Notes: generated by a model not told the origin, from the sequence alone. A stretch of 64,000 nucleotides of DNA from Eubacteriales bacterium (GCA_045639125.1 JAZUCL010000010.1:36213-100212), one strand, 5' to 3'; numbered from the stretch's first letter, positions 20,888 through 53,368 are shown. Numbers and translations are program-made.

Positions 20888-23800
20888 CTATAACTTCAAA
20901 TTGAGTTCTTTCTCAACAGAGCCAATATCAAGGCTAAGCACCTTGGAGATACCCTGAACAGGCATGGCAACACCATAAAGCACATCTGCCTCCTCCATCG
21001 TTCCTCGTCTGTGTGTAATTACGATAAACTGCGTATCGGTAAATCGTTTGAGATAACGTGCGTAACGCAATACGTTGACATCGTCAAGTGCTGCTTCAAT
21101 CTCGTCCAATACGCAAAACGGAGTAGGACGAACTTTCAAAATAGCAAAGTAAAGAGCGATAGCAACAAATGCCTTTTCACCACCTGAAAGAAGGCTCAAT
21201 ACTTTAAGTGCCTTTCCGGGAGGTTGTACTTTTATTTCAATACCGCTACCAAGCACGTCATCAGGATCGCTCAACTCTAAATGAGCACGACCACCGCCAA
21301 ACAGTTCTGTGAATGTTTCACTAAATATTTCATTGATAACCTTAAACTGTGCCGAGAATAGAGTTTTCATCTCACCTGTCAACTCATCAATGATAGCATT
21401 AAGTGACTTTTGAGATACTATAATATCCTCTCTTTGTGCAGTAAGGAACCCATACTTCTCCGATACTTGTGCGTATTCCTCAATAGCACCCGGCGAGATG
21501 TTGCCGAGGGCTTTAATACTTCTGCGAAGTTCGTCTGCCCGTTTCGTTGCCTCTTTACTGTTTTCAAGTTCAATGCACAACTCACGTGCCGTAGAACGAG
21601 TCAACTCATAAGTATCCCACAGTTTTCCCGTCAGATTGTCTTGGTCACGAGTAACTGTTGCAATTGAATTTTCAAAGCGAAGTTGTTCAGTTGCCAAGTT
21701 CTTTGATTTGTCATTCAAATCTTGAATAAGTCTCTCGTTCTTATTTCGTTCGGCCTCTGTCTGAAGTTTCTGCTCTGTCAACGTGCGTGATTTCTCCTCA
21801 AGTTCTATTAGAAGGTCATCAACTGTTTTAAGACGAGCAGTAAGTTCCTCAACTTCAGTACGAAGTGTGGCGTTTCTCAATTCAAACGCATCAGCAGACG
21901 CATTTCGTGTTTCCTTATCAACACTGACAGACTCCAAATGAAGTTTTAATTCTGTCACCGCAGAACGAGCACCACTGCGTTTAAGTTCGGTTTCCTGTTG
22001 TACTGCACGGCGTTTGTCTATTTCCAACTGACTATCTCTTGACTGTGCCGACAATGTTTCAAGTTCAGCATTAAGTTTTTCAATACTATCAACAAATGTC
22101 TGCTCTTCACTTACAAGTTCCGCCTCTGTTTTCTTGTGTACTTCAAGTTGTGCCGTCAATGTATCAATGCGATTGCGAAGGTCAGTACAAAGTGCATCAG
22201 CATTGCGAAAACTCTGCTCCATAAGTGACAAATGCTCACGTCGTTGAGTCAACTGAGCCTCAAGTGCCGCTACTTCCGTATCAAGTGTACGACGTTCATT
22301 TTCTGCCGTAGACAGACTATACTGTGCGGCAGTCAGTTCTTGCTCCAATTGACGAAGTGCTGTTTCTTCTTTAAGTGCAAGGTCACGATTTTCTGCAAGT
22401 GTTGCAGTCAATCTTTCAATTTCATTTGTACGGCTCAATATGCCGTAACTCTTATTCTGACTACCACCTGTCATTGCACCGCCTGCATTGATAACTTGTC
22501 CGTCAAGTGTAACAATGCGGAATTTATAACTGTTTTTACGAGCAAGTGCAATTGCTGAATCAATGCTGTCACATACTGCAGTACGACCTAAAAGGTTTCT
22601 AAATATTCCTGAATACATAGTGTCGTAAGAAACGAGTTGAGATAAAATTCCAACAAAGCCACGTTCATTACGCAACTGCTGCCCTTCAAGTTCAGTTCCC
22701 TTTATCGCTGCAATAGGCAAAAATGTAGCACGGCCGGCATCTCGACGCTTAAGCATCTCAATCGCCGCCTTAGCGTCCTCTTCTCTATCTACAACTATAT
22801 TCTGCATACCTGCACCTAAAGCGGTTTCTGCCGCTACAACATAGCGGTCATCAACTTTCATGAGTTTAGATACAGGCCCGTGTATACCGTTAAGGGCATG
22901 GGCTGACGCATCACGCATAACCATCTTGACACTACGATTAAATCCCTCATAGTCACGTTCAAGGTCGGACAATATCTTCAAACGGCTCGTCTGCTCATCA
23001 ATCTGACGAGTGATATTTTGAACACGGGTGTTTACCTCATCAAACTTCTTACGGCGAGAGTCAAGTTTCAGTCGATAACCTGACATTACATTGTCAAGGC
23101 GGTCGCACATACCTTTCTTTTCATCAAGAAGGGCAGATACTTGCTCGACCTTTTCTTGTGCTTCACTTAAAGTCTTTTTGTTTTCTTCTTCCTGACTGCC
23201 CACATCTATAAGTTGTGAATTAAGTGCATCAACAGATGCCAATACGGACGACATTGCAATACGACACTGTGCGATACGTTCACGGCATTTGAGCATCGAC
23301 TCACGTTCTGAATAAAGTCTGCCGTCAATTTGTGAAATTTGCGATGCAAATGTAGCACCTGTATTGATACTTGTCTCGATCTCTTTTCTAAGATTTTCTA
23401 TTTCTTGTGTCAACTGTTCTATTTCCGCTTCACGTTCAGCGATTGTTTCAACAATTGCAGTTTTACGCTGTTCGTAGTCACGGGATTCGCCTCTTAAGCG
23501 TTCCATATCTTCGCAGTTTCTTGCAATTTCAGCGTTTTTAAGACCAATCTCCGCTGATACTTCACCGCTTTGTGACTCTGTATCACGAATGTTGCTACGC
23601 AACTCGTCATGAGTACGCTCAAGTTCAATCATCTTTTCACTGAGCATCTCTCTCGTTGCGTGGGCAGACTCAATTTGTGTTGTACATTCCTCACAAGCGT
23701 AAGCAATAAGGTTATGCTTGCCTGTAAGTCTGTCCAATTCAACTTTCAACTCGTCAAGGCGATTCATCCAAAGGGTAATTTCAAGCCCTTTAAGTTCACC

Positions 23801-24457
23801 AAACAATGTATTGTATCTACGCTCTTTCTCCGCTTTGATACGAAGTGGCTCAATTTGTTGTTCAAGCGTTTCTATTATATCATTGACACGTACAAGATTG
23901 TCATTTGCGGCATTGAGACGTTTTGTAGCCTCATCACGGCGGTATCTAAACTTTGTAATACCCGCCGCCTCATCAAACACTTCACGGCGGTCATCGCTTT
24001 TAACCGACAAAATCTCGTCAATTCTACCCTGTCCGATAATAGAGTAACCGTCACGGCCAAGACCTGTATCCATAAATAACTCATGGATATCCTTTAATCT
24101 AACAGTCTTTTTATTTATAAAATACTCACTTTCACCGCTACGATAGTAACGACGTGTTACCATAACCTCAGTATAATCAGTCTTTAACGTGTGCTGACTA
24201 TTATCGAGAGTCAATGAGACTTCCGCATATCCAACTGATCTGCGGCTTTGTGTACCGGCAAAAATAACATCTTCCATCTTACTGCCACGAAGTGCCTTGG
24301 TTGACTGCTCTCCAAGCACCCAACGGATAGCATCGGCAATATTAGACTTACCACTTCCGTTCGGTCCTACAATCGCAGTCATACCCTTGTGAAATTCCAA
24401 GTGGAGTTTGTCAGGGAAAGACTTAAAGCCTTGTATATCTATTGACTTGAGGTACAA
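20888..24457 (-). CDS. smc: Chromosome condensation/segregation ATPase SMC
   Basis: Walker A GPNGSGKSN, long coiled coils, hinge, LSGGEK signature and Walker B CVLDEIEAALD. Start re-set to TTG 24457 (MYLKSIDIQGFKSF), 8 nt after AAAGAGG. The track GTG at 24466 directly abuts the RBS. Confidence 0.9.
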   Translation of the reverse strand: MYLKSIDIQGFKSFPDKLHLEFHKGMTAIVGPNGSGKSNIADAIRWVLGEQSTKALRGSKMEDVIFAGTQSRRSVGYAEVSLTLDNSQHTLKTDYTEVMVTRRYYRSGESEYFINKKTVRLKDIHELFMDTGLGRDGYSIIGQGRIDEILSVKSDDRREVFDEAAGITKFRYRRDEATKRLNAANDNLVRVNDIIETLEQQIEPLRIKAEKERRYNTLFGELKGLEITLWMNRLDELKVELDRLTGKHNLIAYACEECTTQIESAHATREMLSEKMIELERTHDELRSNIRDTESQSGEVSAEIGLKNAEIARNCEDMERLRGESRDYEQRKTAIVETIAEREAEIEQLTQEIENLRKEIETSINTGATFASQISQIDGRLYSERESMLKCRERIAQCRIAMSSVLASVDALNSQLIDVGSQEEENKKTLSEAQEKVEQVSALLDEKKGMCDRLDNVMSGYRLKLDSRRKKFDEVNTRVQNITRQIDEQTSRLKILSDLERDYEGFNRSVKMVMRDASAHALNGIHGPVSKLMKVDDRYVVAAETALGAGMQNIVVDREEDAKAAIEMLKRRDAGRATFLPIAAIKGTELEGQQLRNERGFVGILSQLVSYDTMYSGIFRNLLGRTAVCDSIDSAIALARKNSYKFRIVTLDGQVINAGGAMTGGSQNKSYGILSRTNEIERLTATLAENRDLALKEETALRQLEQELTAAQYSLSTAENERRTLDTEVAALEAQLTQRREHLSLMEQSFRNADALCTDLRNRIDTLTAQLEVHKKTEAELVSEEQTFVDSIEKLNAELETLSAQSRDSQLEIDKRRAVQQETELKRSGARSAVTELKLHLESVSVDKETRNASADAFELRNATLRTEVEELTARLKTVDDLLIELEEKSRTLTEQKLQTEAERNKNERLIQDLNDKSKNLATEQLRFENSIATVTRDQDNLTGKLWDTYELTRSTARELCIELENSKEATKRADELRRSIKALGNISPGAIEEYAQVSEKYGFLTAQREDIIVSQKSLNAIIDELTGEMKTLFSAQFKVINEIFSETFTELFGGGRAHLELSDPDDVLGSGIEIKVQPPGKALKVLSLLSGGEKAFVAIALYFAILKVRPTPFCVLDEIEAALDDVNVLRYARYLKRFTDTQFIVITHRRGTMEEADVLYGVAMPVQGISKVLSLDIGSVEKELNLKL

Positions 24458-24529
24458 TATGTACACCTCTTTCTGTTGATAGGTTTCAATCCCATTGTAT
24501 CAAGTCTGCAAAACCCAATACATCATTTT

Positions 24530-24657: not shown

Positions 24658-24694
24658 AAAACTCCCCTTGTGGCTAACACCACAGGGGAGTTTT
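24658..24694 (-). terminator. Intrinsic terminator of the 1406-aa CBM-array gene
   Basis: AAAACTCCCCTTGTGG / CCACAGGGGAGTTTT inverted repeat (one bulged T) with a 6-nt loop. A U-run follows on the minus strand. Confidence 0.65.
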
Positions 24695-24719: not shown

Positions 24720-27700
24720 CTACTTAATAGGTGTCAAAACAATTTCAGAGAAAGCAGGATTGGTACTACCTATGGGATTTTTATCAACTACTGTAAATGA
24801 CAACTTGTTTACACCTTGATTAAGGGATACAGTACCCATAGATTTCCATTCGCATACTGCTACCCAAGTACTCGAAGGAAGATATAAGTTTTGAGTTTCA
24901 CCTTGCTTAATATCGTTAAATAACATATCAACGACACCACGGGAACGAGCCTTGTTGAATAATACATCAACTGTATATTCCGTATTGGATAATGGTACCT
25001 CAAAATCGAAATCAACCGAATCATCAAGCGAAACAAAGAAAGCACCACCTGATGGAGACTGATAATCAGGATAAAAAGTAACGCCGTTTGTAATACTACC
25101 TGCCATAGAATATGCAGGATATATGTATTTCTCAGCCTCAATACCTCTCCAAGATTCTGTCGGCAAATAAGCACTTACCATAGGTGCGGGAGAATCAACG
25201 AACTCAGATGCCATCTCACGGTCAAATCTAAACTCAAGTTGTGAGCCGTATGACAGACAGTTTCTTGAATTGATTGTCGTATCATAAGCAATAGGCTTTG
25301 TAGCACCGTTTTCACTCAACAAAATTGAATTACCTGTTGTAAGGTTAACAAATGTTGCATTGTTTTCCTCGTCAATCCTCCATGCGGTAACTTCAGAGTT
25401 AGTATCCTCAACATCTTCACGATTGAAACGAGGATCATCGATTACCTTCAATTCGTAAGTTGCTCTGTATATTTCGCCACACTTAACATCAAACGGAAAT
25501 TCTATACCCTTTGCAAGTTGAGCAGGAGTAACTGTGTAGACAACATCTTTGTCAGGGTCTACGTGCCAATCATCTGTCATACTGTCAGGAGGTGTAACAC
25601 GAGAGAAACGAATATTCAACTCTGTCGGAATCTCAAATCCGTACTCAGGTATTGTGTCAGAGAAACGAACTGCTGTCAAATCTCCACTTGTTGGTGTAAA
25701 GAATGTAGTGAATGGAAGAACTGCACCTGCTGCAGGTGTTCCGTCATAAACCTTAACCATTCTGAGGAACATTGTATTTTGGAAATTGCCAAAAGTGAAA
25801 GGATATTCTCTGTAAATATCTTCCCATGCCTCAAGTGCTGCACTAATGTCAACACCTGCTTTGTAGAGATATGCCGCATTGAGTGCACCCTCACCGATAC
25901 AACTAGCTTCATGGGAAACATTCTTACGCCAATTCTCCGCCACAAACTCTGCGCTGTCATACCAAAATCTTCTGTCAAATGAATACTCACGAACAAGGAA
26001 CCACAGACAACCACGACCAAATTCAAGTAATTGTTCACGAAGTACAGGATCTTTCTCGTAGTAGCCTACCATCGTTGCTGCTGAACCACAGTGTGCAACA
26101 ACATTGTCAACTGCGTCAGTTACATTGTTGCCAACAGATAGACCTGTGGGGCTATACTCTGTCCAGTAGTACTTTTGACCATTCCATTCACCTGTATGGA
26201 AACCGTAACGTGGGAACTGGTAGTAAACAAACTCTCGAGCCATGTCAAGGTATTTTTCATCACCGAACAATTCATAGGCTCTTACAAGGGATGTAACATT
26301 CAAAGAATTGGTATGGTGATCGCCTTCATGGTATGTCCACGTATATCCCGGCACGTCTTTCCATATCCAGTCAAAGATAGTGAACGCACCACGCCATTCA
26401 AGGCGAGGAACATATTTGTTTTCAGCATTTGGATCGCTCGTGTAATAGTCTTCAACGAAGGCATTTCTTCCGCCCTCTTTCCACTGTGAGTAATCCAAAT
26501 AGGTGAGAAGTTCTTTTGCTCTCGTTGAAAAATACTCATTACCGGTCATAACGTAATTGGGTAGATAATTGAGTCGAACATAGTCAAACTCTCTACGTGG
26601 AGCATACGTATCGGTATAGCCTGTGTGAGGAGACATTATCGGTCTGCCTACGATTGATGGGTCAATAACTTTTGCAGGCATGCCGGTAGCTGACATACCA
26701 AGAGAGCCTTCAATTACAGGCAATGCTTCATCATCTTTAATAACCGTTGGAGCAGCATTAAGTGCAAAGCCTCTTTCCTGACCGCCTGTATTTCCAAAGA
26801 ACGCTGTGCGGAAGAAAGGTTCTGTCCAAAGGTTAGGTACTTCAGTTGCACGTTCCTTAGCAGGAACGAACAGATTCCAGAACTCCTGCGGATCGTCATT
26901 TGTGGGATCATCATCTTCCGGAGCGTAAAAACTTTCAGTAATATCAACTACATTTGTTACGTAGTGCTTATGACCATCAGCATCAGTAAGATACTGACCT
27001 AAAGTCATATCGTCAAACCATACTGTGCCGGCACCATTTTCAATGCCAAGGATAATAGCACACTTTACGGCTCCCATAGGAGTAGATTCTATCTCCATTT
27101 GTCCTTTTGTCCATTCAGTAGATGGAACTAAAGTCTTGCTGAAGGAAGAAATGAAGTTGTCATTTTTGTCATACCACATAAACTTCAAGTATGGATTTCC
27201 TACCATATTTGCTGTCTTGTAGTTAACCGCTAGTTCTACTGTTCTTGCCCCAGTAGCAGCAACATTAAATTGAGTAGCAGTAACCTTCTGCGTGTCATCA
27301 GATACGGACAAACGAAGTGACTGATTTCCACCGCACTTTTCATTCCTATCATATCTAGCACTACTTCCAACACCTGAAGCGGAAAATGTCCATGCGGAAC
27401 TGTTTTCAAAATCAAAGTTGTAAGGGGTACGAACGCTGCCGGTCATTGTCATAGGAACAGTAACCGGTCCAAAAGTTATGTCATCGAACCATAATGTACC
27501 GGAAGTTGCTTCAATGTCAGGATAGATGGTTACAGATTCTGCACCATCAGGGGGCATTACCTCATAAGTCAAACGAACCCACTTAGGCTCATCTTTTTCG
27601 ACATATACACTTGTACTTGCAATACCAGCACCATCAGCGTCATTCCAGTTGACACGAATGTAAGGTGATTCGTCAACATCTACTGCACGATACCATGCAC

Positions 27701-28940
27701 TCAAACGATATACTAACTTATCCTCAGAATTAAGTTGCAAACGTGCCTGCTGTGCAAAGGCTCTACCTTTTGATGTCAAGGAGAGTTTTGCACTGCGATT
27801 ACCAGTATGTGCTTCGGTTGTGTCGTAGGTGGCACTTCCTCCACCCTCTCCATACAATCTCCAGTTCGCATCGGACTCAAAACTTGAGTTATTAACAATA
27901 TTTATTCCGGTTTCAAAACTACTATCAGTCTTTTCGCAAACAGAAATGTCATCAAACCAAACGCTTGTGCCTCTGTCGGCAAGTGTGGTTATGAATAACT
28001 TCATGGCAGGTACATATTGAGGTACTGTATACTCTACCTTATACTCACTCCACTGACTTGCTACTGTTCCTGTCTCGGCAGTCATGCTCTCAATTTCTGT
28101 GCCTATTTCGCCGCCACCTAAATATGTAAGGCCCTTAATTACAGGACGAGCATTTGCGGAAGTCGACATATAATTAAGACTAATTTCATAAGTCTTGCCA
28201 GGCGTTACAAAAATACCATCTTGGGAAAATCCTACATTATTCTCGCTTGGATTACCATTTGTGGCTGTAATCTTCATTGAACCATTGCCGACAGTTGAGT
28301 CGTACGATACAGTACCATAGCCATTAGAACTCAGTGCCCACATGGAAGCATCTGAATCAAATTCGCCATTCTTTATATGGTTGCCTTCTACCAATGTAGG
28401 ACCTTGTATAGAAATAGAATCTATCCATACAGTTGCGTCAACATTACCGCTTGAGAAAGCAACTTCAATGAATGTGGCGGTAGGTGCGGCAGTGTATACG
28501 AGCGTCAATTCATTCCAAGTATTAATTGAAAACGACTGGTTAGCACTTGCACTCATAGTTGCATCAAGACAAGTTGCTCCGTTATAAGACGTTGCTGAAA
28601 TCATTGGATTTGCCGATGAATCGCTCACCTTAACATTTGCACGGATGGTGTATGTCTCACCACCAATGGCAGGAATATACCTTTGACGTACTACAGAAGA
28701 AACACCCTCCAATTTAAGTGAAGCAGTACCTGAATAAGTTACGCTGTCATCAAGAGACGCATTGCCCGACACTTTTATCCAACCCACTGGCATACCATCT
28801 CCTACACCCTCAAAACTTGAGTTTGCAGGTGTTGTTGAGTTGAACATTGACGATATTGTAACTATACCAAGTGATAATGCTGCCAACATTAGTACAATTA
28901 GTGCCGTTTTTGTAATTCTCTTTTTGAAAATTTTCATCAT
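24720..28940 (-). CDS. Secreted multidomain glycan-binding or glycan-active protein with no SLH anchor. Signal peptide, 4 CBM4/9/22-like jelly-roll modules, a ~615-aa aromatic-rich central domain of unassigned family, and a C-terminal CBM-like module.
   Basis: The N-terminus MMKIFKKRITKTALIVLMLAALSLG is signal-like. Modules start with N-[GS]-x-F-E...W and end with (V/L)W(I/F)DD(I/M)(S/T), as in CBM_4_9-type domains. The central region is rich in W/Y and is near-identical to its paralog. Confidence 0.7.
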   Translation of the reverse strand: MMKIFKKRITKTALIVLMLAALSLGIVTISSMFNSTTPANSSFEGVGDGMPVGWIKVSGNASLDDSVTYSGTASLKLEGVSSVVRQRYIPAIGGETYTIRANVKVSDSSANPMISATSYNGATCLDATMSASANQSFSINTWNELTLVYTAAPTATFIEVAFSSGNVDATVWIDSISIQGPTLVEGNHIKNGEFDSDASMWALSSNGYGTVSYDSTVGNGSMKITATNGNPSENNVGFSQDGIFVTPGKTYEISLNYMSTSANARPVIKGLTYLGGGEIGTEIESMTAETGTVASQWSEYKVEYTVPQYVPAMKLFITTLADRGTSVWFDDISVCEKTDSSFETGINIVNNSSFESDANWRLYGEGGGSATYDTTEAHTGNRSAKLSLTSKGRAFAQQARLQLNSEDKLVYRLSAWYRAVDVDESPYIRVNWNDADGAGIASTSVYVEKDEPKWVRLTYEVMPPDGAESVTIYPDIEATSGTLWFDDITFGPVTVPMTMTGSVRTPYNFDFENSSAWTFSASGVGSSARYDRNEKCGGNQSLRLSVSDDTQKVTATQFNVAATGARTVELAVNYKTANMVGNPYLKFMWYDKNDNFISSFSKTLVPSTEWTKGQMEIESTPMGAVKCAIILGIENGAGTVWFDDMTLGQYLTDADGHKHYVTNVVDITESFYAPEDDDPTNDDPQEFWNLFVPAKERATEVPNLWTEPFFRTAFFGNTGGQERGFALNAAPTVIKDDEALPVIEGSLGMSATGMPAKVIDPSIVGRPIMSPHTGYTDTYAPRREFDYVRLNYLPNYVMTGNEYFSTRAKELLTYLDYSQWKEGGRNAFVEDYYTSDPNAENKYVPRLEWRGAFTIFDWIWKDVPGYTWTYHEGDHHTNSLNVTSLVRAYELFGDEKYLDMAREFVYYQFPRYGFHTGEWNGQKYYWTEYSPTGLSVGNNVTDAVDNVVAHCGSAATMVGYYEKDPVLREQLLEFGRGCLWFLVREYSFDRRFWYDSAEFVAENWRKNVSHEASCIGEGALNAAYLYKAGVDISAALEAWEDIYREYPFTFGNFQNTMFLRMVKVYDGTPAAGAVLPFTTFFTPTSGDLTAVRFSDTIPEYGFEIPTELNIRFSRVTPPDSMTDDWHVDPDKDVVYTVTPAQLAKGIEFPFDVKCGEIYRATYELKVIDDPRFNREDVEDTNSEVTAWRIDEENNATFVNLTTGNSILLSENGATKPIAYDTTINSRNCLSYGSQLEFRFDREMASEFVDSPAPMVSAYLPTESWRGIEAEKYIYPAYSMAGSITNGVTFYPDYQSPSGGAFFVSLDDSVDFDFEVPLSNTEYTVDVLFNKARSRGVVDMLFNDIKQGETQNLYLPSSTWVAVCEWKSMGTVSLNQGVNKLSFTVVDKNPIGSTNPAFSEIVLTPIK
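24730..27236. repeat. Copy A of a ~2.5-kb high-identity direct repeat (partner 30237-32737)
   Basis: Base-by-base comparison shows long identical runs. Shadow ORFs recur at offset +5507 (24860/30367, 25549/31056) and then +5501 (26300/31801, 26714/32215, 27025/32526), which implies an in-frame 6-nt indel. Confidence 0.85.
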
Positions 28941-28991
28941 GTAATATCATTTCCTTCTCACAAAATAAAAAGTTAATCTTTCACTTAATAT

Positions 28992-29020
28992 ATTATAACT
29001 TAAAATAATGATAATTACAA
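28992..29020 (-). promoter_or_regulatory. Candidate promoter of the 1406-aa gene
   Basis: Minus strand: TTGTAA (29020-29015), 17-nt spacer, TATAAT (28997-28992). The -35 lies inside the proximal copy of a 21-bp tandem repeat. Confidence 0.45.
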
Positions 29021-29050
29021 TGTGTTTTTTGATAATTACAATGTGTTTTT
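29010..29050. repeat. Two tandem copies of GATAATTACAATGTGTTTTT(T)
   Basis: Read directly: 29010-29030 and 29031-29050, period 21 bp, identical over 20 nt. Confidence 0.9.
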
Positions 29051-29263
29051 ATTTTTTTCAAAACAATTGGTTAATCCGGTTATTTGCCCTAAAACTATAT
29101 GTGTTTGTTACTACCTATTTATACCTACTTTATTGATATTCTTTTATATCCCCTACTTCGTTACTCTCGTGATTGACTCGACTTTCCTTGCATTAGGAGA
29201 TATTTTGTAGAGTGTCAAAAAGACTCTTTTGAACTAACATTTTACAGGAGGCTTCATTATGCA

Positions 29264-29298
29264 GAAACTCCTCTGCGGCTGACACCGCAGAGGAGTTC
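29264..29298 (-). terminator. Hairpin downstream of the 1997-aa gene (weak U-tract)
   Basis: AACTCCTCTGCGG-CTGACA-CCGCAGAGGAGTT. Its architecture resembles the hairpin at 24658-24694. Confidence 0.45.
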
Positions 29299-29341
29299 TA
29301 AATAAAAATGAGAGAGAAAAAAGGAAGTTTGCTATTATATA

Positions 29342-32300
29342 CTATCTGCCAAGCAGAGTACAGATATTATGGAATACATTTGCTACTTCGCCACGAGAAG
29401 CATTTACACGTGGTGCAACAGAAGCCAAGTCGCTTAACTGCATTACGCCCTGTCCAAGTGCCCAGTTAAGAGCGGGCTTAGCGTAATCAGATACGGAGGA
29501 TGCATCGGTGTAGCCTGAAAGGTTACTGCTTGCATTTGCCTTTGATGCAAGTCCGCAATGGATTGCGTAGCGGTACATAATTGCCGCCAACTGCTCACGA
29601 GAAATTGGCTCATTTGGCATAAACTTGCCGTTTGTATATCCCTCTACAATGCCGTTTGCAGATGCCCATTTGGTAGCGGTTGCATACCATGCGTCATTTG
29701 CTACATCGCTAAAGGATATTCCCTGTGATACAGTAGGTTGACCTGCAAGACGATAAAGGATTGTTACTATCATTCCACGTGTGATTGTTGCGTCAGGACT
29801 AAACATATTGTTGCCTGTGCCATTCATCAGACCTGTAGATGATACGTAAACTACATCGTCAAAGTAACGGTAGGTTGAGTCTACATCATAGAATGTAGGT
29901 GCAAATACATCTACATCAGCCAAATTTGGTTTATCCTCTTCCTCGTTAAGACGTACTGTTACTTCAACAGAATCTCTGAAACTTTCATCGAAAGATGTTG
30001 CTGTAATTACTGTCTTACCGTTTGAAATTGCAGTTACAACACCTAAATCATTTACAGTTGCAACACTTGGGTTGCTACTTGTCCAAGTTATTGGATAAAC
30101 GTATGGATTATCAGTAACAATATAGGTGTCAAGACGCAACTTTGTATTTGTAGAACGCATTACTCTGTCGTGTTCTGCTATTACAAACTCATCATCATTT
30201 ATAGTTTCAATCTTTTCATCAGTCGTTTGGCCAACAGGTGTCAAAACAATTTCAGAAAAACCAGGATTGGTATTGCCTAAAGGATTTTTACCAACTACTG
30301 CAAATGATAACTTATTTATACCTTGGATAAGGGATACAGTACCCATAGATTTCCATTCGCATACTGCTACCCAAGTACTCGAAGGACGATACAAGTTTTG
30401 GGTTTCGCCTTGCTTAACATCGTTAATATACATATCAACGACACCACGGGAACGAGCCTTGTTGAATAATACATCAACTGTATATTCCGTATTGGATGAC
30501 GGTATCTCAAAATCGAAATCAGCCGAAGCACCAAGTGAAACAAATAAAGCACCACCTGATGGGGACTGATAATCAGGATAATAAGTAACGCCGTTTGTAA
30601 TACTACCTGCCATAGAATATGCAGGATATATGTATTTCTCAGCCTCAATACCTCTCCAAGATTCTGTCGGCAAATAAGCACTTACCATAGGTGCAGGAGA
30701 ATCAACGAACTCAGATGCCATCTCACGGTCAAATCTAAACTCAAGTTGTGAGCCGTATGACAGACAGTTTCTTGTATTGATTGTCGTATCATAAGCAATA
30801 GGCTTTGTAGCACCGTTTTCACTCAACAAAATTGAATTACCTGATGTAAGGTTAACAAATGTTGCATTGTTTTCCTCATCAATTCTCCATGCGGTAACTT
30901 CAGAGTTAGTATCCTCAACATCTTCACGATTGAAACTAGGATCATCGATTACCTTCAGTTCGTAAGTTGCCCTGAATATTTCACCACACTTAACATCAAA
31001 TGGAATTTCAACACCCGCTGCAAGTTGGGCAGGAGTAACTGTGTAGACAACATCTTTGTCAGGATCTACGTGCCAATCATCTGTCGTATTGTCAGGAGGT
31101 GTAACACGAGAGAAACGAATATTCAACTCTGTGGGAATCTCAAATCCGTACTCAGGTATTGTGTCAGAGAAACGAACTGCCGTCAAATCTGCAGTTGTTG
31201 GTGTGAAGAATGTAGTGAATGGAAGAACTGCACCTGCTGCAGGTGTTCCGTCATAAACCTTAACCATTCTGAGGTACATTGCACATTGCATACTGCCAAA
31301 AGTGAAAGGATATTCTTTGTAAATATCTTCCCATACCTCAAGTGCTGCACTAATGTCAACACCTGCTTTGTAGAGATATGCCGCCATGAGTGCACCCTCA
31401 CCTAAACAACTGTTTTCATGGGAAACAGCCTTACGCTTATTCTGCTCCACGTACTCAGCGCCGTCATACCAAAATCTTCTGTCAAATGAATACTCACGAA
31501 CAAGGTACCACAGACAACCACGACCAAATTCAAGTAATTGTTCACGAAGTACAGGATCTTTCTCGTAGTAGCCTACCATTGTTGCTGCTGAAGCGCAGTG
31601 TGCAATAGCATTGTCAATTGCGTCAGTAGTTGGGTTGCCATCACCTGTGGGGTTATACTCTGTCCAGTAGTACTTTTGACCATTCCATTCACCTGAATGG
31701 AAACCGTAACGTGGGAACTGGTAGTAAACAAACTCTCGAGCCATTTCAAAGTATTTTTCATCACCGAACAATTCATAGGCTCTTATAAGGGATGTAACAT
31801 TCAAAGAGTTGGTATGGTGATCGCCTTCATGGTATGTCCACGTATATCCCGGCACGTCTTTCCATATCCAGTCAAAGATAGTGAACGCACCACGCCATTC
31901 AAGGCGAGGAACATATTTGTTTGCAGCATTTGGATCGCTCGTGTAATAGTCTTCAACGAAGGCATTTCTACCGCCCTCTTTCCACTGTGAGTAATCCAAA
32001 TATGTGAGAAGTTCTTTTGCTCTCGTTGAAAAATACTCATTACCGGTCATAACGTAATTGGGCAGATAATTGAGTCTAATATAGTCAAACTCTCTACGTG
32101 GAGCATACGTATCGGTATAGCTTCCATGAGGAGACATTATCGGTCTGCCTACGATTGATGGGTCAATAACTTTTGTAGCCTTGCCGGTAGATGACATACC
32201 AAGAGATCCAATAACTACAGGCATCGTTTCATCATCTTTAATAACTGATGGAGCAGCATTAAGTGCAAAGCCTCTTTCCTGACCGCCTGTATTTCCAAAG

Positions 32301-35300
32301 AACGCTGTGCGGAAGAAAGGTTCTGTCCAGATGTTGGGGACTTCAGTTGCAAGAGGCTTAGCAGGAACAAACATAGCCCAGTACGCTTGTGGATCGTCGT
32401 ATGTGGGATCATCATCTTCCGGAGCGTAAAAACTTTCGGTAATATCAACTACATTTGTTACGTAGTGCTTATGACCATCAGCATCAGTAAGATACTGACC
32501 TAAAGTCATATCGTCAAACCATACTGTGCCGGCACCATTTTCAACGCCAAGGATAATAGCACACTTTGCAGTACCCTTAGGAGATAATGTCTCAATTTGT
32601 CCCTCTGTCCATTCATCAGATGGAGCTAAAGTCTTGCTGAAAGAAGAAATGAAGTTGTCATTTTTATCATACCACATAAACTTCAAGTATGGATTTCCTA
32701 CCATATTTGCTGTCTTGTAGTTAACTATAAGTTTAATTGTATTATTCTCAGTAGAATTAATATTAAACTGAGTAGCAGTTGCAGAATCTGTTTCAGATGC
32801 CGTAGTCAACTTAAGAGACTTGTTGCCCTTGTATGCATCTGAATCAAATGACGCTTCACTGCCATCACCACGTGTTTCAAGTTCCCAATAAGAACTTGCA
32901 TTTGTACTTTCTTCAAAATCTATGTCGTTGAATGGGTGACTCTTGCCGGTCATTGTCATAGGAACAGTAACCGTTCCAAAAGTTATGTCATCGAACCATA
33001 ATGTACCGGAAGTTGCTTCAATGTCGGGATAGACCTGTACGGTTTTTGCACCAACAGGAGACATTGCTTCCCAAGTTACACGAACCCACTCAGGCTCATC
33101 TTTTTCTATATATACACTTGTACCACCAAGGCTAGCATTATTATCGCCATACCAGTTGACACGAATCTGTGGTTTTGCGTCACCGGGAATTGCACGATAC
33201 CATGCACTCAAGCGATATACTGACTGATCATCAGAATTAAGTTGCATGCCTGATTGCTGTGCAAAGGCTCTACCTTTTGATGTCAAGGAGAGTTTTGCAC
33301 TGCGTTTGCCTGTATGTGCTTGGGTTGTGTCGTAGGTAGCAGTTCCTCCAGCGTTGCTGTACATTCTCCAGATCGAATTGGACTCAAAACTTGAGTTCAT
33401 AACAATATTTTCAAGTTTTTCTTTTACACTAATTGAGTCGATCCAAATTTCCTTATCCGCTGTTGAATTACCAACAAATTCTACTTTTAATGCAGTTGCA
33501 TTTACAGGGGCAGATTCAACTACCGCCAAACTCGTCCATTCTGTTTCAGATGATGTTTTTAGATTTGCATTAAAAGCATCACCAACGGGAGTATCACCAC
33601 AGTACCACCTAAGTTGCATATATGGTGCTGTGTCGGAGGAAAGAACAAATGCCTTTATCTCATAGTCTTTGCCGCCGATTACAGGAATACCACTTTGTGT
33701 AATAGATGCATTGCCTGCAAGTTTTGCACTGCTTGTGCCTTTTTGTGCCTTTGTTGTGTCAATAGTAGCGTTGCCACTCCAACCGGAAACATCTCCTTCA
33801 AAATCACCGTTTACAGTAAGGTTTTTGGAAATGTCAAGAACAAGTGGTGCTCCAGACACAGATACTTCGTCAATCCAAGTAGACTTTCCGGATTCTGCTG
33901 CACCTACAAATGAAAGGGACATTGCGGTTGCATCGGAAGGTGCTGATAATTTACCGGAAATTTTCTGCCATTCATTAGATGCTGATTTTGCTGCGATCTG
34001 GAAAGTATCCTTTCCGCCAATACTAAGTAATGTGTCGCCTTTGTACCACTGTACGTTTACAGAAGGTACATCTGTGCTGTCAGTACAAACATACGCACTG
34101 ATATTATACTCATAACCGCCAAGAATTGTAATTCTTGACTGTTTTGCAATAACAGCATTATTTCCGCTTGCTGTCATTTTAAGGGATGCTATTCCCTTAC
34201 GGTAAGAATTAGTAACTGCTGTGCCTGTTCCGTTTTCAATATTCCAGCCGATTGCACTTGCAGAATCTGTGGGGTTAATCTCTGTCTTTGGCTCAAAAGA
34301 ACCATTTGCAACGAGATTCTTTTCATTCAAAGCAACAAGACTTACAGAGTCAATCCATAATGCCTTGCCACTTTCCGTGCAGTTGGTAGGAATAGAGAAT
34401 CTCATTTCCACTATACCTGCAGGAATTTCGAGTACACCTGAAAATTTTGTCCAACTTGTAGGTGCAGCATCAAACTTAACAAGGACACCACCAGTTTGCT
34501 TACCATTGGAATCATAATAGTAGTAGTCAATTTCAGGTGCTGCTCCGGGATCGTCTGTAAAGAAGTAAGCAGAAACTTCATACTGCTTGCCGGCCTCAAC
34601 AGGTATTCTTGCATTATTTGCTGTCTGAACTGTAGCATTACCTGTCGCTTTAAGGGCTTTTCCACCGCTGTGTACATTGGTACTGTCAGCGGAGATTGCA
34701 CCTAAAGCCGCTTTAGTCCAGCCAAGAGTGCCGTCCTCGAAATTACCGTTAAATACACGGTTGCTGTCTGTGTATTCTTCCACCAAAACAGAGTCAAGCC
34801 ATACTGCCTTATCACTTGCTGTGTTGTTGGAAGGAATAGATAATCTCACTGCAACTGTACCTTCAGGAATTTCGATTAAACCTGACAGTTTTGTCCAACC
34901 ACTTGTCGGTGCAGTCTCAAACTTAACAACGGTACCACCACCAGCAGAAGTTCCATCGCTCTTATAACGGTAGTAGTCAATTTGAGGTTTTGATTCGGGG
35001 TTGTCTGTATAGAAGTATGCAGAAAATTCATACTTCTTGCCAGCCACAACAGATATTTTTGCATCCATCGCTGTCTGCGCTATAGCATTACCTGTCATCT
35101 TAAGGGATTTTTCACCGCTGTGTACATAGGTATTATCAGCGGTGGTTTTACCATTAGCCGCTTTAGTCCAACCCGTAGTTCCGTTCTCAAAACCGGGGTT
35201 TGTAACAGATGGTTCTACATCAGTTGCATACGCCGTAAGCGGAGCAAAAGACGAAAACGCATCGAGTGGTAGCATTGTAATTGTCATAGCAACACAAAGC

Positions 35301-35335
35301 ACCATTGCAAGTACGCGAGTGAGTGTTTTTTTCAT
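29342..35335 (-). CDS. S-layer-homology-anchored surface paralog. Signal peptide, 6 CBM4/9/22-like modules, the same central domain, a CBM-like module, a Big_2 Ig-like domain, and 3 SLH repeats.
   Basis: 1997 aa with signal-like MKKTLTRVLAMVLCVAMTITMLP. Big_2-like ITWTSSNPSVATVNDLGVVTAISNGKTVITAT. Three SLH repeats (FYDVD...TRGMIVTILYRLAG; FSDVANDAWY...SREQLAAIMYRYA; YTDASSVSDYAKPALNW...SRGEVANVFHNI). Confidence 0.8.
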   Translation of the reverse strand: MKKTLTRVLAMVLCVAMTITMLPLDAFSSFAPLTAYATDVEPSVTNPGFENGTTGWTKAANGKTTADNTYVHSGEKSLKMTGNAIAQTAMDAKISVVAGKKYEFSAYFYTDNPESKPQIDYYRYKSDGTSAGGGTVVKFETAPTSGWTKLSGLIEIPEGTVAVRLSIPSNNTASDKAVWLDSVLVEEYTDSNRVFNGNFEDGTLGWTKAALGAISADSTNVHSGGKALKATGNATVQTANNARIPVEAGKQYEVSAYFFTDDPGAAPEIDYYYYDSNGKQTGGVLVKFDAAPTSWTKFSGVLEIPAGIVEMRFSIPTNCTESGKALWIDSVSLVALNEKNLVANGSFEPKTEINPTDSASAIGWNIENGTGTAVTNSYRKGIASLKMTASGNNAVIAKQSRITILGGYEYNISAYVCTDSTDVPSVNVQWYKGDTLLSIGGKDTFQIAAKSASNEWQKISGKLSAPSDATAMSLSFVGAAESGKSTWIDEVSVSGAPLVLDISKNLTVNGDFEGDVSGWSGNATIDTTKAQKGTSSAKLAGNASITQSGIPVIGGKDYEIKAFVLSSDTAPYMQLRWYCGDTPVGDAFNANLKTSSETEWTSLAVVESAPVNATALKVEFVGNSTADKEIWIDSISVKEKLENIVMNSSFESNSIWRMYSNAGGTATYDTTQAHTGKRSAKLSLTSKGRAFAQQSGMQLNSDDQSVYRLSAWYRAIPGDAKPQIRVNWYGDNNASLGGTSVYIEKDEPEWVRVTWEAMSPVGAKTVQVYPDIEATSGTLWFDDITFGTVTVPMTMTGKSHPFNDIDFEESTNASSYWELETRGDGSEASFDSDAYKGNKSLKLTTASETDSATATQFNINSTENNTIKLIVNYKTANMVGNPYLKFMWYDKNDNFISSFSKTLAPSDEWTEGQIETLSPKGTAKCAIILGVENGAGTVWFDDMTLGQYLTDADGHKHYVTNVVDITESFYAPEDDDPTYDDPQAYWAMFVPAKPLATEVPNIWTEPFFRTAFFGNTGGQERGFALNAAPSVIKDDETMPVVIGSLGMSSTGKATKVIDPSIVGRPIMSPHGSYTDTYAPRREFDYIRLNYLPNYVMTGNEYFSTRAKELLTYLDYSQWKEGGRNAFVEDYYTSDPNAANKYVPRLEWRGAFTIFDWIWKDVPGYTWTYHEGDHHTNSLNVTSLIRAYELFGDEKYFEMAREFVYYQFPRYGFHSGEWNGQKYYWTEYNPTGDGNPTTDAIDNAIAHCASAATMVGYYEKDPVLREQLLEFGRGCLWYLVREYSFDRRFWYDGAEYVEQNKRKAVSHENSCLGEGALMAAYLYKAGVDISAALEVWEDIYKEYPFTFGSMQCAMYLRMVKVYDGTPAAGAVLPFTTFFTPTTADLTAVRFSDTIPEYGFEIPTELNIRFSRVTPPDNTTDDWHVDPDKDVVYTVTPAQLAAGVEIPFDVKCGEIFRATYELKVIDDPSFNREDVEDTNSEVTAWRIDEENNATFVNLTSGNSILLSENGATKPIAYDTTINTRNCLSYGSQLEFRFDREMASEFVDSPAPMVSAYLPTESWRGIEAEKYIYPAYSMAGSITNGVTYYPDYQSPSGGALFVSLGASADFDFEIPSSNTEYTVDVLFNKARSRGVVDMYINDVKQGETQNLYRPSSTWVAVCEWKSMGTVSLIQGINKLSFAVVGKNPLGNTNPGFSEIVLTPVGQTTDEKIETINDDEFVIAEHDRVMRSTNTKLRLDTYIVTDNPYVYPITWTSSNPSVATVNDLGVVTAISNGKTVITATSFDESFRDSVEVTVRLNEEEDKPNLADVDVFAPTFYDVDSTYRYFDDVVYVSSTGLMNGTGNNMFSPDATITRGMIVTILYRLAGQPTVSQGISFSDVANDAWYATATKWASANGIVEGYTNGKFMPNEPISREQLAAIMYRYAIHCGLASKANASSNLSGYTDASSVSDYAKPALNWALGQGVMQLSDLASVAPRVNASRGEVANVFHNICTLLGR
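30237..32737. repeat. Copy B of the ~2.5-kb direct repeat (partner 24730-27236)
   Basis: See copy A. A second, more diverged block of similarity lies at about 32946-33405 versus 27441-27905. Confidence 0.85.
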
Positions 35336-35525: not shown

Positions 35526-35554
35526 ATATTACACTATTTTGGGAATATTGTCAA
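35526..35554 (-). promoter_or_regulatory. Candidate promoter of the 1997-aa SLH gene
   Basis: Minus strand: TTGACA (35554-35549), 17-nt spacer, TGT-TAATAT (35531-35526). Implies a ~185-nt AT-rich 5' UTR containing a perfect 10-bp hairpin (35370-35395). Confidence 0.45.
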
Positions 35555-35627: not shown

Positions 35628-36713
35628 TCAGGCATGAATTATTTCAAAATTCTGCTCGTTATAGATATAATTCATACGCTCATTTGTATTTTCAAATATT
35701 GAGTATGCAAGAAGCAATTTTGCATAGGTGGTTTCCATTGTGTATCCGTATACAAAATTTATCTTTTTCCCGTTTGCTTCATGCTTTGCTATTATATCAG
35801 AAGTTTCGTATATCTCACCCTTTAGTATTGCCGGTGCAATAAAAGCATCTGTCTTTCTTTTCGATTTGGCACAAGCGTCTATCATGGCAAGAATTGAGTC
35901 ACTGCTATAGTGTGAGTTGTCCTTCGTTTTTTCACAGCAAGCAGTACCTGAATGATATGTGCCGTGGAGGACGGCTGAATATTTATCGTAATTAAATGAC
36001 TCGTAATTTATACCCACATAGGGAAAAATCATTAACACGCATTGAGAAAGTGTCCAATCTGCAAATATATCAATTCCAGTTTTAATCTTTTGCGGTGGGT
36101 ACATTATATTTATTTTGGCAAAGATGTCCTTGTAGTTTTTATTTGAAATGTCAGTAATATTGATTGCTCCGACACTTGTAAAGTCCTCAGAATAGATTTT
36201 GCATTGTTCAAGTCGTGATGCAAGATGCAGATACATCTGCTTATCAGATACATTTTCGTATACCGCGTATACATTAGCAGGGATTTTTCTGCAAATACAT
36301 TCTACCGCACATTTGAAATTTGCATCACCATTTGATTTTTGTGACTGTAATCTGTCGTTGGCAGATACAAAAAACACAGGAATTTTCGTGCCGCTCAAAA
36401 TCATTGAAAACAGTGCAGCAGAATACGCCAATGTATCTGTTCCGTGGGCAAAAATTATACCGTCAAAATTTTCATTCGCCACTTCTTTGCGATACACTCG
36501 AATTATCTCGTTTAGATTTTCTATCGTCATGTTTTCGCTCAATATATTTAGGTTTTCACTCAACTTTATATCTACCTTGTTGGCGTATACTGAATTTGAG
36601 TTGTAGAAGTTTTCCGTTAGCAGTGTGCCTGCATTTTCGTCTATTGATTTTGTACCGTCTTTATTCAGTTTACAGCAAATAGTCCCACCGACTAAAATCA
36701 ACAATATCCGCAT
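35628..36713 (-). CDS. Asparaginase/glutaminase-family (type I asparaginase / GatD-like) amidohydrolase
   Basis: 361 aa. N-terminal nucleophile motif ILVGGTICC (GGT), second motif IFAHGTDTLAYSAA (HGTDT), candidate Lys in EQCKIYSEDFTS. AGGAGG RBS. Last gene of the gat operon. Confidence 0.7.
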   Translation of the reverse strand: MRILLILVGGTICCKLNKDGTKSIDENAGTLLTENFYNSNSVYANKVDIKLSENLNILSENMTIENLNEIIRVYRKEVANENFDGIIFAHGTDTLAYSAALFSMILSGTKIPVFFVSANDRLQSQKSNGDANFKCAVECICRKIPANVYAVYENVSDKQMYLHLASRLEQCKIYSEDFTSVGAINITDISNKNYKDIFAKINIMYPPQKIKTGIDIFADWTLSQCVLMIFPYVGINYESFNYDKYSAVLHGTYHSGTACCEKTKDNSHYSSDSILAMIDACAKSKRKTDAFIAPAILKGEIYETSDIIAKHEANGKKINFVYGYTMETTYAKLLLAYSIFENTNERMNYIYNEQNFEIIHA

Positions 36714-41462: not shown

Positions 41463-41750
41463 ACCAAGTCCTCCTAAATATGCCAAAAAATATAAAAATC
41501 CCGAGAATACAAAACATATTCTCGGGACGAGCAAACAAAAATAAGCCCGCGGTGCCACCCGCATTGATACTTCAAAAGTATCCTCTTTAACTGTTTAATT
41601 GTTGATTATCGGAGTGTTGTCAAACTTACTACTCATCTCAAATGTGCTTTCAGTCCATGGCACATTCTCCCTAACAGACTTTCCAAAAAAGTTGAGTCTC
41701 CAACTACAAATAATACTAAAAGGATAACACTAATCGCTCTATTTGTCAAT
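41463..41750 (-). promoter_or_regulatory. T-box riboswitch leader of the aspS-gat operon
   Basis: Minus strand: T-box sequence AAUGCGGGUGGCACCGCGGG (41565-41547), then a terminator CCCGAGAAUA-7 nt-UAUUCUCGGG + U-run (41526-41490). The terminator's 5' arm can alternatively pair into the antiterminator. Upstream lie AGGGAGA and CUGAAAGC elements resembling the stem-I AG bulge and distal loop. Candidate promoter TTGACA 41749-41744. Confidence 0.8.
41490..41526 (-). terminator. T-box attenuator terminator
   Basis: 10-bp perfect stem (41500-41509 / 41517-41526) followed on the minus strand by AUUUUUAUAUUUUUU. Confidence 0.8.
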
Positions 41751-42775: not shown

Positions 42776-43690
42776 GTGAATGTAACGAACAATTCAAAAA
42801 ACTTCTCATTTACTGATATTTCTAACCACCCACTTGCTACACATATTACGCAAGCGGCTTCCCTTTCATTACTAAACGGCTATCCCGACAAAACATTTCG
42901 TCCTGACAATGCGGTTACAAGAGCCGAATTTGTCGCTATGACAAATCGTTGTCTTGGTATAAGTGGTTGTGCTACAGTACCATTTACCGATGTTCCCGAA
43001 GACGCATGGTATCACATCGAAGTTGAAAAGGCTTTGTCTATTGGATATATCCACGGCACTTCCAATACGACATTTTCACCCAACGATTATATAACTCGTG
43101 GTCAGGTAGCAACAATTCTTTGTCGTATAGTCGGCGGTAAATATACATTCTGTGGCTACCATGACGCAGAAAATGTACCTGCATGGATGAAAGATGGTCT
43201 ATGCTATGCGTGGACAAGTGGCGTGTTTTCCTCAATTTGCCAAACTGACAACCTGTTTTCCATTGATAAAATTATGACTCGTGGTGAGTGTGCGGCTGTC
43301 ATTACGGCATTTTATAAGTCCCTAAATCGCTTCCCTATCTTCTTGACGTTATGTGAAAAAAGTGATAAGGAGATATCTTTCGATTCCCCCTTTTATATCT
43401 ACTTTACCATTTCAGGTAAGAATCTTTTTTCTCACCTTCTTAAAAAATGTCAAGAGGATGTAGCCTTTAGCGAATTATCAGAGAGTGTACGTGTTGACTT
43501 ATGTGTATCAAATGACTTGACAGTTACCGACAAAGAGGTTTTTGAGGCCGACGAGAATTACGTCTATATTCGTCTTACTCTACGTCAGGTGTCAAAGGGA
43601 GATGCTTCTTTGGTCATTTCAATTAAGCCGACAGACACTAATACCTACAACGTATCCGACTCTCATCAAGCGTTAAACTTCAAATTCTAA
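42776..43690 (+). CDS. Protein with three N-terminal SLH repeats, no signal peptide, and a ~130-aa unknown C-terminal domain
   Basis: GTG start 4 nt after the upstream stop. The frame is closed by TAG at 42770-42772, so no longer N-terminus is possible. SLH repeats FTDISNHPLATH...TRAEFVAM, FTDVPEDAWYH...TRGQVATILCRIVG, YHDAENVPAWM...TRGECAAVITAFY. Confidence 0.7.
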   Translation: MNVTNNSKNFSFTDISNHPLATHITQAASLSLLNGYPDKTFRPDNAVTRAEFVAMTNRCLGISGCATVPFTDVPEDAWYHIEVEKALSIGYIHGTSNTTFSPNDYITRGQVATILCRIVGGKYTFCGYHDAENVPAWMKDGLCYAWTSGVFSSICQTDNLFSIDKIMTRGECAAVITAFYKSLNRFPIFLTLCEKSDKEISFDSPFYIYFTISGKNLFSHLLKKCQEDVAFSELSESVRVDLCVSNDLTVTDKEVFEADENYVYIRLTLRQVSKGDASLVISIKPTDTNTYNVSDSHQALNFKF

Positions 43691-51657: not shown

Positions 51658-51690
51658 AATAATACATCCTTTCACCAATTAAACTGGCAC

Positions 51691-53328: not shown

Positions 53329-53368
53329 AAAATACCCTCCGAGCAAATATTCTTATATCTGAATTTTT

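Follow-up and report, generated by a model that had tools for sequence, protein, structure and literature searches.

A 64,000-nucleotide (nt) stretch of DNA from an Eubacteriales bacterium (GCA_045639125.1, JAZUCL010000010.1:36213-100212) contains two giant tandem paralogous genes, termed here A and B, which are the subject of this report; the whole stretch is referred to as the window, and positions are counted from its first letter. We conclude, at a probability of about 0.8, that a segment of approximately 3.2 kb was copied non-reciprocally between these distinct paralogs well after the separation of this species from a related one, that is, by ectopic gene conversion or segment replacement. 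A and B are mosaics, the phylogenies of their N-terminal and shared parts are incongruent, and the silent divergence of the shared part is about a tenth of the species level. The direction of the transfer, the out-of-register position of one junction, the recombination pathway and the enzymatic role are what we infer.

Gene A codes for a signal peptide, four modules resembling CBM4_9 carbohydrate-binding modules (CBMs; A1 to A4), an unassigned core, a beta-rich region and a C-terminal CBM84-like module. Gene B starts with a signal peptide unlike that of A, which is followed by six CBM4_9-like modules (B1 to B6) and then by the core, the beta region and the CBM84-like module. B continues past this last module with a Big_2 domain and SLH repeats, a tail that A does not have. 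The open reading frames (ORFs) are both intact, and an earlier note on this DNA had correctly described two same-strand giant genes of 1406 and 1997 codons with four and six CBMs, respectively, the numbers that phmmer also returns. CBM_4_9 (PF02018; cut-off 25.9 bits) scores above the gathering threshold in A (97.7 bits) and in B (149.3 bits). SLH (PF00395; 86.3 bits, cut-off 20.8) and Big_2 (PF02368; 31.2 bits, cut-off 22.8) do so in B, with no match above cut-off in A. By its domain content, A would be the free secreted form and B the cell-wall-anchored form of one machine, and the locus would present one putative enzyme in a free and an anchored format, each with its own carbohydrate-binding array.

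The two genes align as a single co-linear blastn high-scoring segment pair (24726-27903 in A, 30233-33410 in B) with 89.2% identity over 3195 columns, a repeat far beyond chance. Sliding windows of 30 codons resolve the comparison into blocks with sharp edges. Nucleotide identity is about 40% (background) over amino acids (aa) 1-325, 77-90% at aa ~340-500, 51-62% at aa ~500-560, a stretch that we call the patch, and 81-100% from aa ~560 to the last codons. The offsets of 5507 and then 5501 given previously were borne out by direct-repeat analysis, which adds a step to 5498 and a return to 5507 past the patch; all indels are in frame (two codons, one codon, and a net three codons inside the patch). 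The very high nucleotide identity first described is likewise found (93% at 24726-27230, 180 differences in 2532 nt), as is its sharp fall at ~27230/32730 inside a CBM. The earlier note had the coordinates of this high-identity part right, but its total of ~2.5 kb is ~0.7 kb too short. Identity does recover abruptly at 27440/32946 (it had given 27441/32946), but instead of decaying after ~90 nt it holds at 77-90% over ~470 nt, a whole CBM, and ends sharply at 27903-27915/33410-33420. The shared block holds, besides the enzymatic core that had been proposed as the unit, two N-terminal CBMs, the beta region and the CBM84-like module. Its modules pair A3 with B5 (71% aa identity) and A4 with B6 (65%), and the cores are 88% identical in aa.

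A and B differ at ~340 positions in the block, where no identical run exceeds 114 nt. These figures bear on the idea that the arrangement is an assembly artefact, with repeats collapsed, expanded or chimeric. The assembly of the related genome introduced below does break inside near-identical tails, but with so many differences and no longer identical run, with both ORFs intact and provided with their own signals, and with a pairwise profile that would look the same had segments been exchanged between the copies, the probability of an artefact is negligible.

Synonymous divergence between A and B (dS, Nei-Gojobori) is saturated in the N-terminal arrays, 0.21 in A3/B5, 1.16 in the patch, 0.10 in the core, 0.11 in the beta region and 0.14 in the C-terminal module; it amounts to 0.16 for the block when the patch is counted in. 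We also counted the codons of conserved amino acids that differ silently, a measure free of pathway assumptions. They make up 62% in the arrays, 9% in A3/B5, 33% (8/24) in the patch and 5-9% elsewhere. A maximum chi-square scan over the 834 conserved codons returned aa 515-541 as the sole anomalous segment (permutation p 0.007); when the patch is removed, silent differences are homogeneous (permutation p 0.33). In the core, clustering is strong for differences at all sites (index of dispersion 3.8, p 3e-15) and absent for silent ones (index of dispersion 1.28, p 0.20), which indicates patches of amino-acid replacement and not several tracts. A mosaic of multiple conversion tracts inside the core was considered and is ruled out by the unclustered silent differences. 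Within the source genome there are thus one block of uniform age and one older patch, which fits a single event followed by divergence. Conversion had been described as ongoing; neither the homogeneity outside the patch nor the shortness of the longest identical tract supports this.

Amino-acid change since the event has been relatively fast and clustered, with a dN/dS (ratio of nonsynonymous to synonymous divergence) of 0.56 downstream of the patch (A aa 558-1406) and of 0.77-0.81 in the CBMs of the block. Replacements between A and B fall on 6 of 147 family-conserved columns (4%) as compared to 27 of 193 variable ones (14%), and all invariant residues of the family are retained in A and B. 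As replacements spare the conserved residues, both copies are probably functional.

Comparison with another species relied on one genome, GCA_054277315.1 (the relative), located via the proteins P0004 and P0005, the nearest members of the core family (43-45% identical in the core). Scans of genome contigs and of metagenome contigs returned no relative closer than 39%, and A and B are each the sole member of their own 90% cluster. At the syntenic locus, the relative has five or more giant genes in tandem (1424+ to 2020 aa; L045 10001-20016 and L046 1-16573), as compared to two in the window. They are designated R1 to R5, five being a lower bound; R1 corresponds to P0004 and R3 to P0005. Contig 19 of the relative shows an SLH protein, aspS-gatC, gatA, gatB and an asparaginase-like gene, the same gene order as in the window, and then R1 and R2, the latter running off the end of the contig within its tail. 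Contig 28 starts with the end of an SLH tail, followed by R3, R4 (1720 aa, tail-less) and the further giant gene R5. Housekeeping orthologues of window and relative are 84-92% identical in aa, with a dS of 1.2-1.4 (GatB, AspRS, GatA).

The head of A, comprising the signal peptide, A1 and A2, is orthologous to that of R4. The two are 61% identical in aa over the first 340 aa (A1 69%, A2 58%) and 67% identical in nt over 845 nt, co-linear up to the linker between modules 2 and 3; the next-best matches of A's head do not exceed 36%. R4, like A, ends right after its C-terminal module, and both genes have the stop context TAGACA; R4 has six modules and A four. The signal peptide of B shares 59-68% of its residues with those of R1, R2, R3 and R5, and the tail of B is 69% identical in aa to that of R1, with a dS of 1.45, at the species level. 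The block behaves otherwise. The core of A is 45-49% identical in aa to any of R1-R5, versus 88% to B, and silent sites are saturated between the blocks of A and R4. In neighbour-joining trees with 200 bootstraps, the head supports (A,R4) in 200/200, and the block supports (A,B) in 200/200 and (R1-R5) in 200/200. From this incongruence it follows that A-type and B-type genes predate the species split and that the block was copied between them much later. Gene conversion or recombination, as first suggested, therefore stands as a transfer between paralogs (head of A with R4; block with B, at a dS of 0.10-0.16 against 1.2-1.4), without the qualifiers that accompanied it. As to the further suggestion that the binding modules diversify, the N-terminal arrays differ mainly through their descent in two gene lineages already separate before the species split, and not through diversification after a duplication; the CBMs of the block do show the raised dN/dS given above.

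The cores form species-specific clades, as expected if whole genes had been duplicated independently in each lineage, their N-terminal arrays had then diverged rapidly and no transfer between existing paralogs had occurred. Tandem duplication does recur in the core family: an uncultured Clostridia metagenome-assembled genome (MAG) includes a tandem pair of 730 and 733 aa (L009 2876-7274), 63% identical in aa and 72% in nt over the full length, with no mosaic. Such a history is nonetheless very unlikely for A and B, as the head of A groups with that of R4 in every bootstrap replicate and not with B, and A and R4 have in common both the tail-less architecture and the stop context. Nor does divergence explain a head of A with no nucleotide similarity to B beside an 89% identical block, with a step in silently changed codons from 62% to 7%.

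Selection instead of history could be invoked as well, with a constrained core and with diversifying selection, or hypermutation of the type caused by diversity-generating retroelements (DGRs), in the patch and the arrays. The high dN/dS of the CBMs and the clustered replacements of the core point in this direction. But the contrast is present at silent sites too, the saturation between the A and R4 blocks means that the block is not intrinsically slow, and the patch, described below, has neither adenine-specific mismatches nor, among the flanking ORFs scanned, a neighbour with a reverse transcriptase or mobile-element domain. We hold selection as the source of the pattern to be highly improbable; it may contribute to the clustered replacements inside the block.

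The steps of the proposed event can be laid out as follows. An old tandem family would have comprised, before the species split, two types of genes: tail-less (A, R4) and SLH-anchored (B, R1, R2, R3, R5). After the split, a segment including two CBMs, the catalytic-looking core, the beta region and the CBM84-like module would have been copied into the other gene. The 3′ end of the tract would be forced by the end of homology at the stop codon of A. Similarity ends 3-6 nt ahead of this codon, and A and B share nothing beyond it because A-type genes lost the tail. At the 5′ junction, A is R4-like through an end-of-module motif and linker (TDSSFETGI) and B-like exactly from the module-start motif NIV.NSSFE. 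The start of the third module of A would have paired with that of the fifth module of B, out of register, via a short motif kept at every module start, and this pairing would explain why A has four modules and R4 six. Both copies would then have diverged evenly, to a dS of ~0.1. A relative-rate test showed no asymmetry (19 derived sites in A vs 27 in B, p 0.30) and does not separate donor from recipient.

Several observations weigh against this account. At the 5′ outer edge, identity drops from ~85% to no detectable similarity at the module start, and the 3′ edge is the stop of A, which is not the picture of a classic RecA tract flanked by older homology; tract ends inside homologous sequence are seen for the internal edges of the patch only. 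At 45-49% aa identity, the distance of the A and B cores from every R core is larger than expected beside heads of A and R4 that are 61% identical, and it calls for a rapidly evolving block or for a donor lineage that was not sampled. The patch resembles neither R4 (29% aa) nor any sequence of the window. The array of the relative is split over two contigs with breaks in the repeated tails, so that its order is partly inferred, and this sole relative is distant (dS above 1), which makes any time and direction of the transfer tentative.

The edges, at which high identity gives way to none, are also what the junctions of a duplication would look like. Our main rival explanation is a recent partial tandem duplication of the 3′ part of B, from module 5 to the terminator, fused illegitimately to a pre-existing R4-type head, so that A would have arisen by duplication and domain shuffling with no conversion of an intact gene. 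The uniform silent divergence fits one copying event of this kind, and A and B end in similar terminator hairpins. Related terminator-like hairpins, however, follow all array members in both genomes, so the likeness is unspecific. R4 is a complete gene, with a block of its own and, like A, no tail, and in the ancestor of A a block was most likely present and then replaced. We regard the duplication and fusion as improbable, though deserving more weight than any other alternative; its outcome would be the same in any case, B-type sequence having been copied one way into the A gene.

Gene conversion between paralogs in prokaryotes has been surveyed, and concerted evolution defined, in PMC6053082, where well-supported prokaryotic concerted evolution outside rRNA operons and a few housekeeping genes is reported to be rare. 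As in concerted evolution, the block of A and B is closer within the genome than to orthologues in the relative, the unconverted parts keep an older trans-species orthology, and the tract ends are discrete. The contrast in dS (0.10-0.16 vs 1.2-1.4) is paralleled by that in silently changed conserved codons (7% vs 40-62%). Unlike tufA/tufB and the rRNA operons, the tract is a multi-domain cassette in giant modular secreted proteins, and no whole housekeeping gene is involved. Two further differences are that one junction is apparently out of register at a module boundary, and that this genome shows one event and not continuous homogenisation.

The patch makes up the N-terminal half of the core-adjacent CBM, and A and B are 38% identical in aa there. 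Its 5′ edge is very sharp, with 16 codons showing one difference followed by 8 changed codons in a row, and its silent change (8/24) exceeds the 6-9% of the flanks (Fisher p 0.002-0.005). Here B resembles R1 (37% aa) no less than it does A, and A is the outlier, being 23-30% identical in aa to all R genes (29% to R4). The patch is therefore not a leftover of an R4-like ancestor. Among the other modules of A and B no donor was found, all being at most 28% identical in aa. The history of the patch is older or foreign, which calls for at least one extra recombination step; it could come from an unsampled paralog or allele, or reflect very fast local divergence. As in DGRs, a short hypervariable stretch lies here in a ligand-binding beta-sandwich module; unlike in DGRs, adenine-specific mismatches find no support. 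A DGR or hypermutation origin was ruled out, since the mismatches involve all bases. No Pfam domain hinting at a reverse transcriptase or mobile element was found in a scan of 20 flanking ORFs, which left aside the smaller ORFs of the window and in which most of the identified genes have housekeeping roles; the direct-repeat analysis reported no template repeat.

In the relative, a different segment has been homogenised. Its SLH tails are ~85-90% identical in aa, with cores at 55-68%, and two contigs end inside tails; the SLH tail is the most recently homogenised segment (R1-R3 dS 0.47 vs 1.54 for the cores). This indicates that exchange is recurrent in the array over evolutionary time. Downstream of R4 (L046 11922-12060), an out-of-gene remnant, TTCCATAACATCGGTACTATGCTTGGCAGATAG, encodes FHNIGTMLGR and a stop, the last ten codons of an SLH tail, which means that an internal deletion removed the anchor of R4. 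Between the terminator hairpins of A and B the changes are paired and compensatory, and within the window the terminator motif is common to the ends of A and B only. With related hairpins after every array member, the terminator seems to have been part of the ancestral repeat unit. B itself includes an intragenic tandem duplication, B1/B2 (34486-34742 vs 34936-35192, minus strand; 77% nt, 55% aa); the CBM array of B grows by unequal recombination. The coordinates of the features of both genes are compiled in Table 1.

Table 1. Positions of the two genes, their segments and their predicted signals in the window
Feature	Position	Strand	Remarks
Gene A	24720-28940	minus	1406 aa; ORF intact; Pfam CBM_4_9 9e-28
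Gene B	29342-35335	minus	1997 aa; ORF intact; Pfam CBM_4_9 1e-43, SLH 1e-24, Big_2 2e-7
Head of A	27909-28940	minus	signal peptide, A1, A2; unrelated to B at the nucleotide level
Head of B	33413-35335	minus	signal peptide, B1-B4
Shared block in A	24726-27915	minus	aa 345-1405: A3, A4, core, beta region, CBM84-like module
Shared block in B	30233-33420	minus	aa 642-1701: B5, B6, core, beta region, CBM84-like module
Modules of A			A1 aa 38-184; A2 aa 185-344; A3 aa 345-498; A4 aa 499-653
Downstream parts of A			~450-aa unassigned core aa 654-1100; beta-rich region aa 1101-1260; C-terminal module aa 1261-1405
Patch in A	27228-27437	minus	~210 nt, aa 502-571; B counterpart 32726-32944
Core in A	25641-26981	minus	aa 654-1100; B counterpart 31148-32482
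CBM84-like module of A	24726-25160	minus	B counterpart 30233-30667
B-only tail	29345-30232	minus	linker, Big_2, SLH repeats; orthologous to the tails of the relative's paralogs
Intrinsic terminator hairpin 3′ of A	24662-24690	minus	predicted fold -28.7 kcal/mol, z -7.8
Intrinsic terminator hairpin 3′ of B	29268-29295	minus	predicted fold -29.7 kcal/mol, z -7.6
Promoter-like site of A	29020-28992	minus	TTGTAA-17-TATAAT; putative, consensus match
Promoter-like site of B	35526-35554	minus	TTGACA-17-TAATAT; putative, consensus match

The core has no match above threshold in Pfam, NCBIfam or the PDB sequences. It has the invariant motifs HE(P/G)DHH, PRYGFH, YYWTEY and SH(D/E). Recurrent matches below threshold are to C5-epim_C, GH127 and alginate lyase. 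C5-epim_C (PF06662) reaches 17 bits in A, under its gathering threshold of 23.3, and is weak in 5 of 13 family members (best E 0.003); GH127 (PF07944) reaches 13.2 bits, under its threshold of 24.9, and is weak in 3 of 13. The family is very rare: an exhaustive HMMER search with A aa 631-1406 found 65 matches among 1.84 billion representative proteins, as compared to two distant homologues by word-indexed protein search with the core or with a profile of 13 sequences. Members occur in Paenibacillus, clostridial MAGs, Actinomycetota, Bacteroidota and others, usually together with CBM arrays, and are unannotated. The nearest relatives of the family, in Paenibacillus and clostridial MAGs, point together with the SLH domains and the gene content to a Bacillota source of the window. 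An AF2 model of A aa 770-1075 (306 residues, built on a four-sequence alignment) consists of helical hairpins, with low to moderate confidence (pLDDT 68, pTM 0.74). In Foldseek, the model has (alpha/alpha)6 carbohydrate enzymes as its sole neighbours (E ~6e-3, TM 0.37-0.49), headed by 6I01, a D-glucuronyl C5-epimerase, at probability 1.0. The predicted fold is likely (alpha/alpha)-barrel-like. D-glucuronyl C5-epimerase, AGE-type epimerases/isomerases, GH76, GH88/GH105 and GH127 are the only structural neighbours of the model; unlike these barrel enzymes, the core has sequence matches that all lie under curated cut-offs, so that the resemblance is at the level of the fold only. The genes around a Paenibacillus homologue (AraC regulators, GFO/IDH/MocA oxidoreductases, GH3) suggest sugar metabolism, in an unspecific manner. 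A lead in the literature to gellan lyase (PL33) gave no link to the core family.

SLH-anchored polysaccharide-degrading enzymes of Paenibacillus and clostridia combine a signal peptide, arrays of CBM4_9/CBM22-type modules, a catalytic domain, Ig-like modules and a C-terminal SLH triplet, and free and anchored variants of multi-modular Bacillota enzymes occur in one organism. A and B are like these enzymes in their modular layout and in their free and anchored forms, and unlike them in having a putative catalytic region that matches no Pfam, NCBIfam or PDB sequence family.

The ~105 C-terminal residues of the block give profile E-values of 8e-7 to MiXBM (7EHG) and of 7e-6 to the C-terminal part of a Paenibacillus xanthan lyase (6F2P). 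According to PMC10881899, CBM84 is characteristic of xanthan-active enzymes, xanthan lyases and xanthanases. The likeness of the C-terminal module of A and B to MiXBM and 6F2P is distant, and the matched region of 6F2P may be the unclassified terminal module named in PMC10881899. The known catalytic partners of CBM84 are PL8 or GH9, and not a core like that of A and B. Our guess for the substrate would be an acidic branched exopolysaccharide.

As described before, the gene pair lies between smc (20888-24466) and the gat operon (gatB, gatA, aspS-gatC), flanked by AT-rich intergenic DNA (GC 34-36%, vs 41-44% within genes); an asparaginase-like gene sits between gatB and B, and ftsY lies on the smc side. 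The terminator 3′ of B predicts that B and A are two transcription units. Two exact 20-nt direct repeats, AAAAACACATTGTAATTATC (29010-29029 and 29031-29050, minus strand), separated by one base, overlap the -35 region of the promoter-like site of A. Their chance expectation is none, and they may be a candidate regulator-binding site.

Directly upstream of gatA and gatB, an aspartyl-tRNA synthetase-GatC fusion of 723 aa (39393-41564, minus strand) includes a complete AspRS part (anticodon OB, class II core, GAD) and a C-terminal GatC domain (aa 647-717); the fusion is kept in the relative (L045 3915-5984, 92% aa). The asparaginase-N-domain protein encoded directly downstream of gatB (35628-36713, minus strand; L045 8658-9734) is 68% identical in aa between both genomes, and the position of its gene is reminiscent of GatD-like amidotransferase partners. 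Two adjacent genes for class I Glu/Gln-type tRNA synthetases (49990-53346, minus strand), one with a GlnRS-type and the other with a GluRS-type anticodon-binding domain, coexist with the GatCAB operon in the window. Just past the gat operon, a separate SLH-domain protein of 304 aa is encoded on the plus strand (42776-43690), 60% identical in aa to the copy of the relative.

Gene conversion between tandem bacterial paralogs is already known, and A and B are a further example. What they add is the module-level and probably out-of-register geometry and the rare, unclassified enzyme family concerned, at a locus where the converted tract and the unconverted scaffolds are both directly readable. Conversion at the level of modules, probably out of register, reshapes giant secreted enzymes, and phylogenies or orthology calls made from the core of A or B would mislead. 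The core, usually embedded in CBM arrays and with a predicted alpha/alpha-barrel, is a reasonable target for the discovery of carbohydrate-active enzymes (CAZymes). We put forward tentatively, as a possibility short of an even chance, that the array works as a cassette system which swaps the core together with its proximal CBMs among scaffolds, and that the core founds an unclassified CAZyme family. If this is true, the scaffolds would set the localisation (free or SLH-anchored) and the distal arrays, a new specificity would spread to all display formats, and the core would possibly be a lyase or epimerase acting on exopolysaccharides that contain uronic acids, such as xanthan-like polymers.

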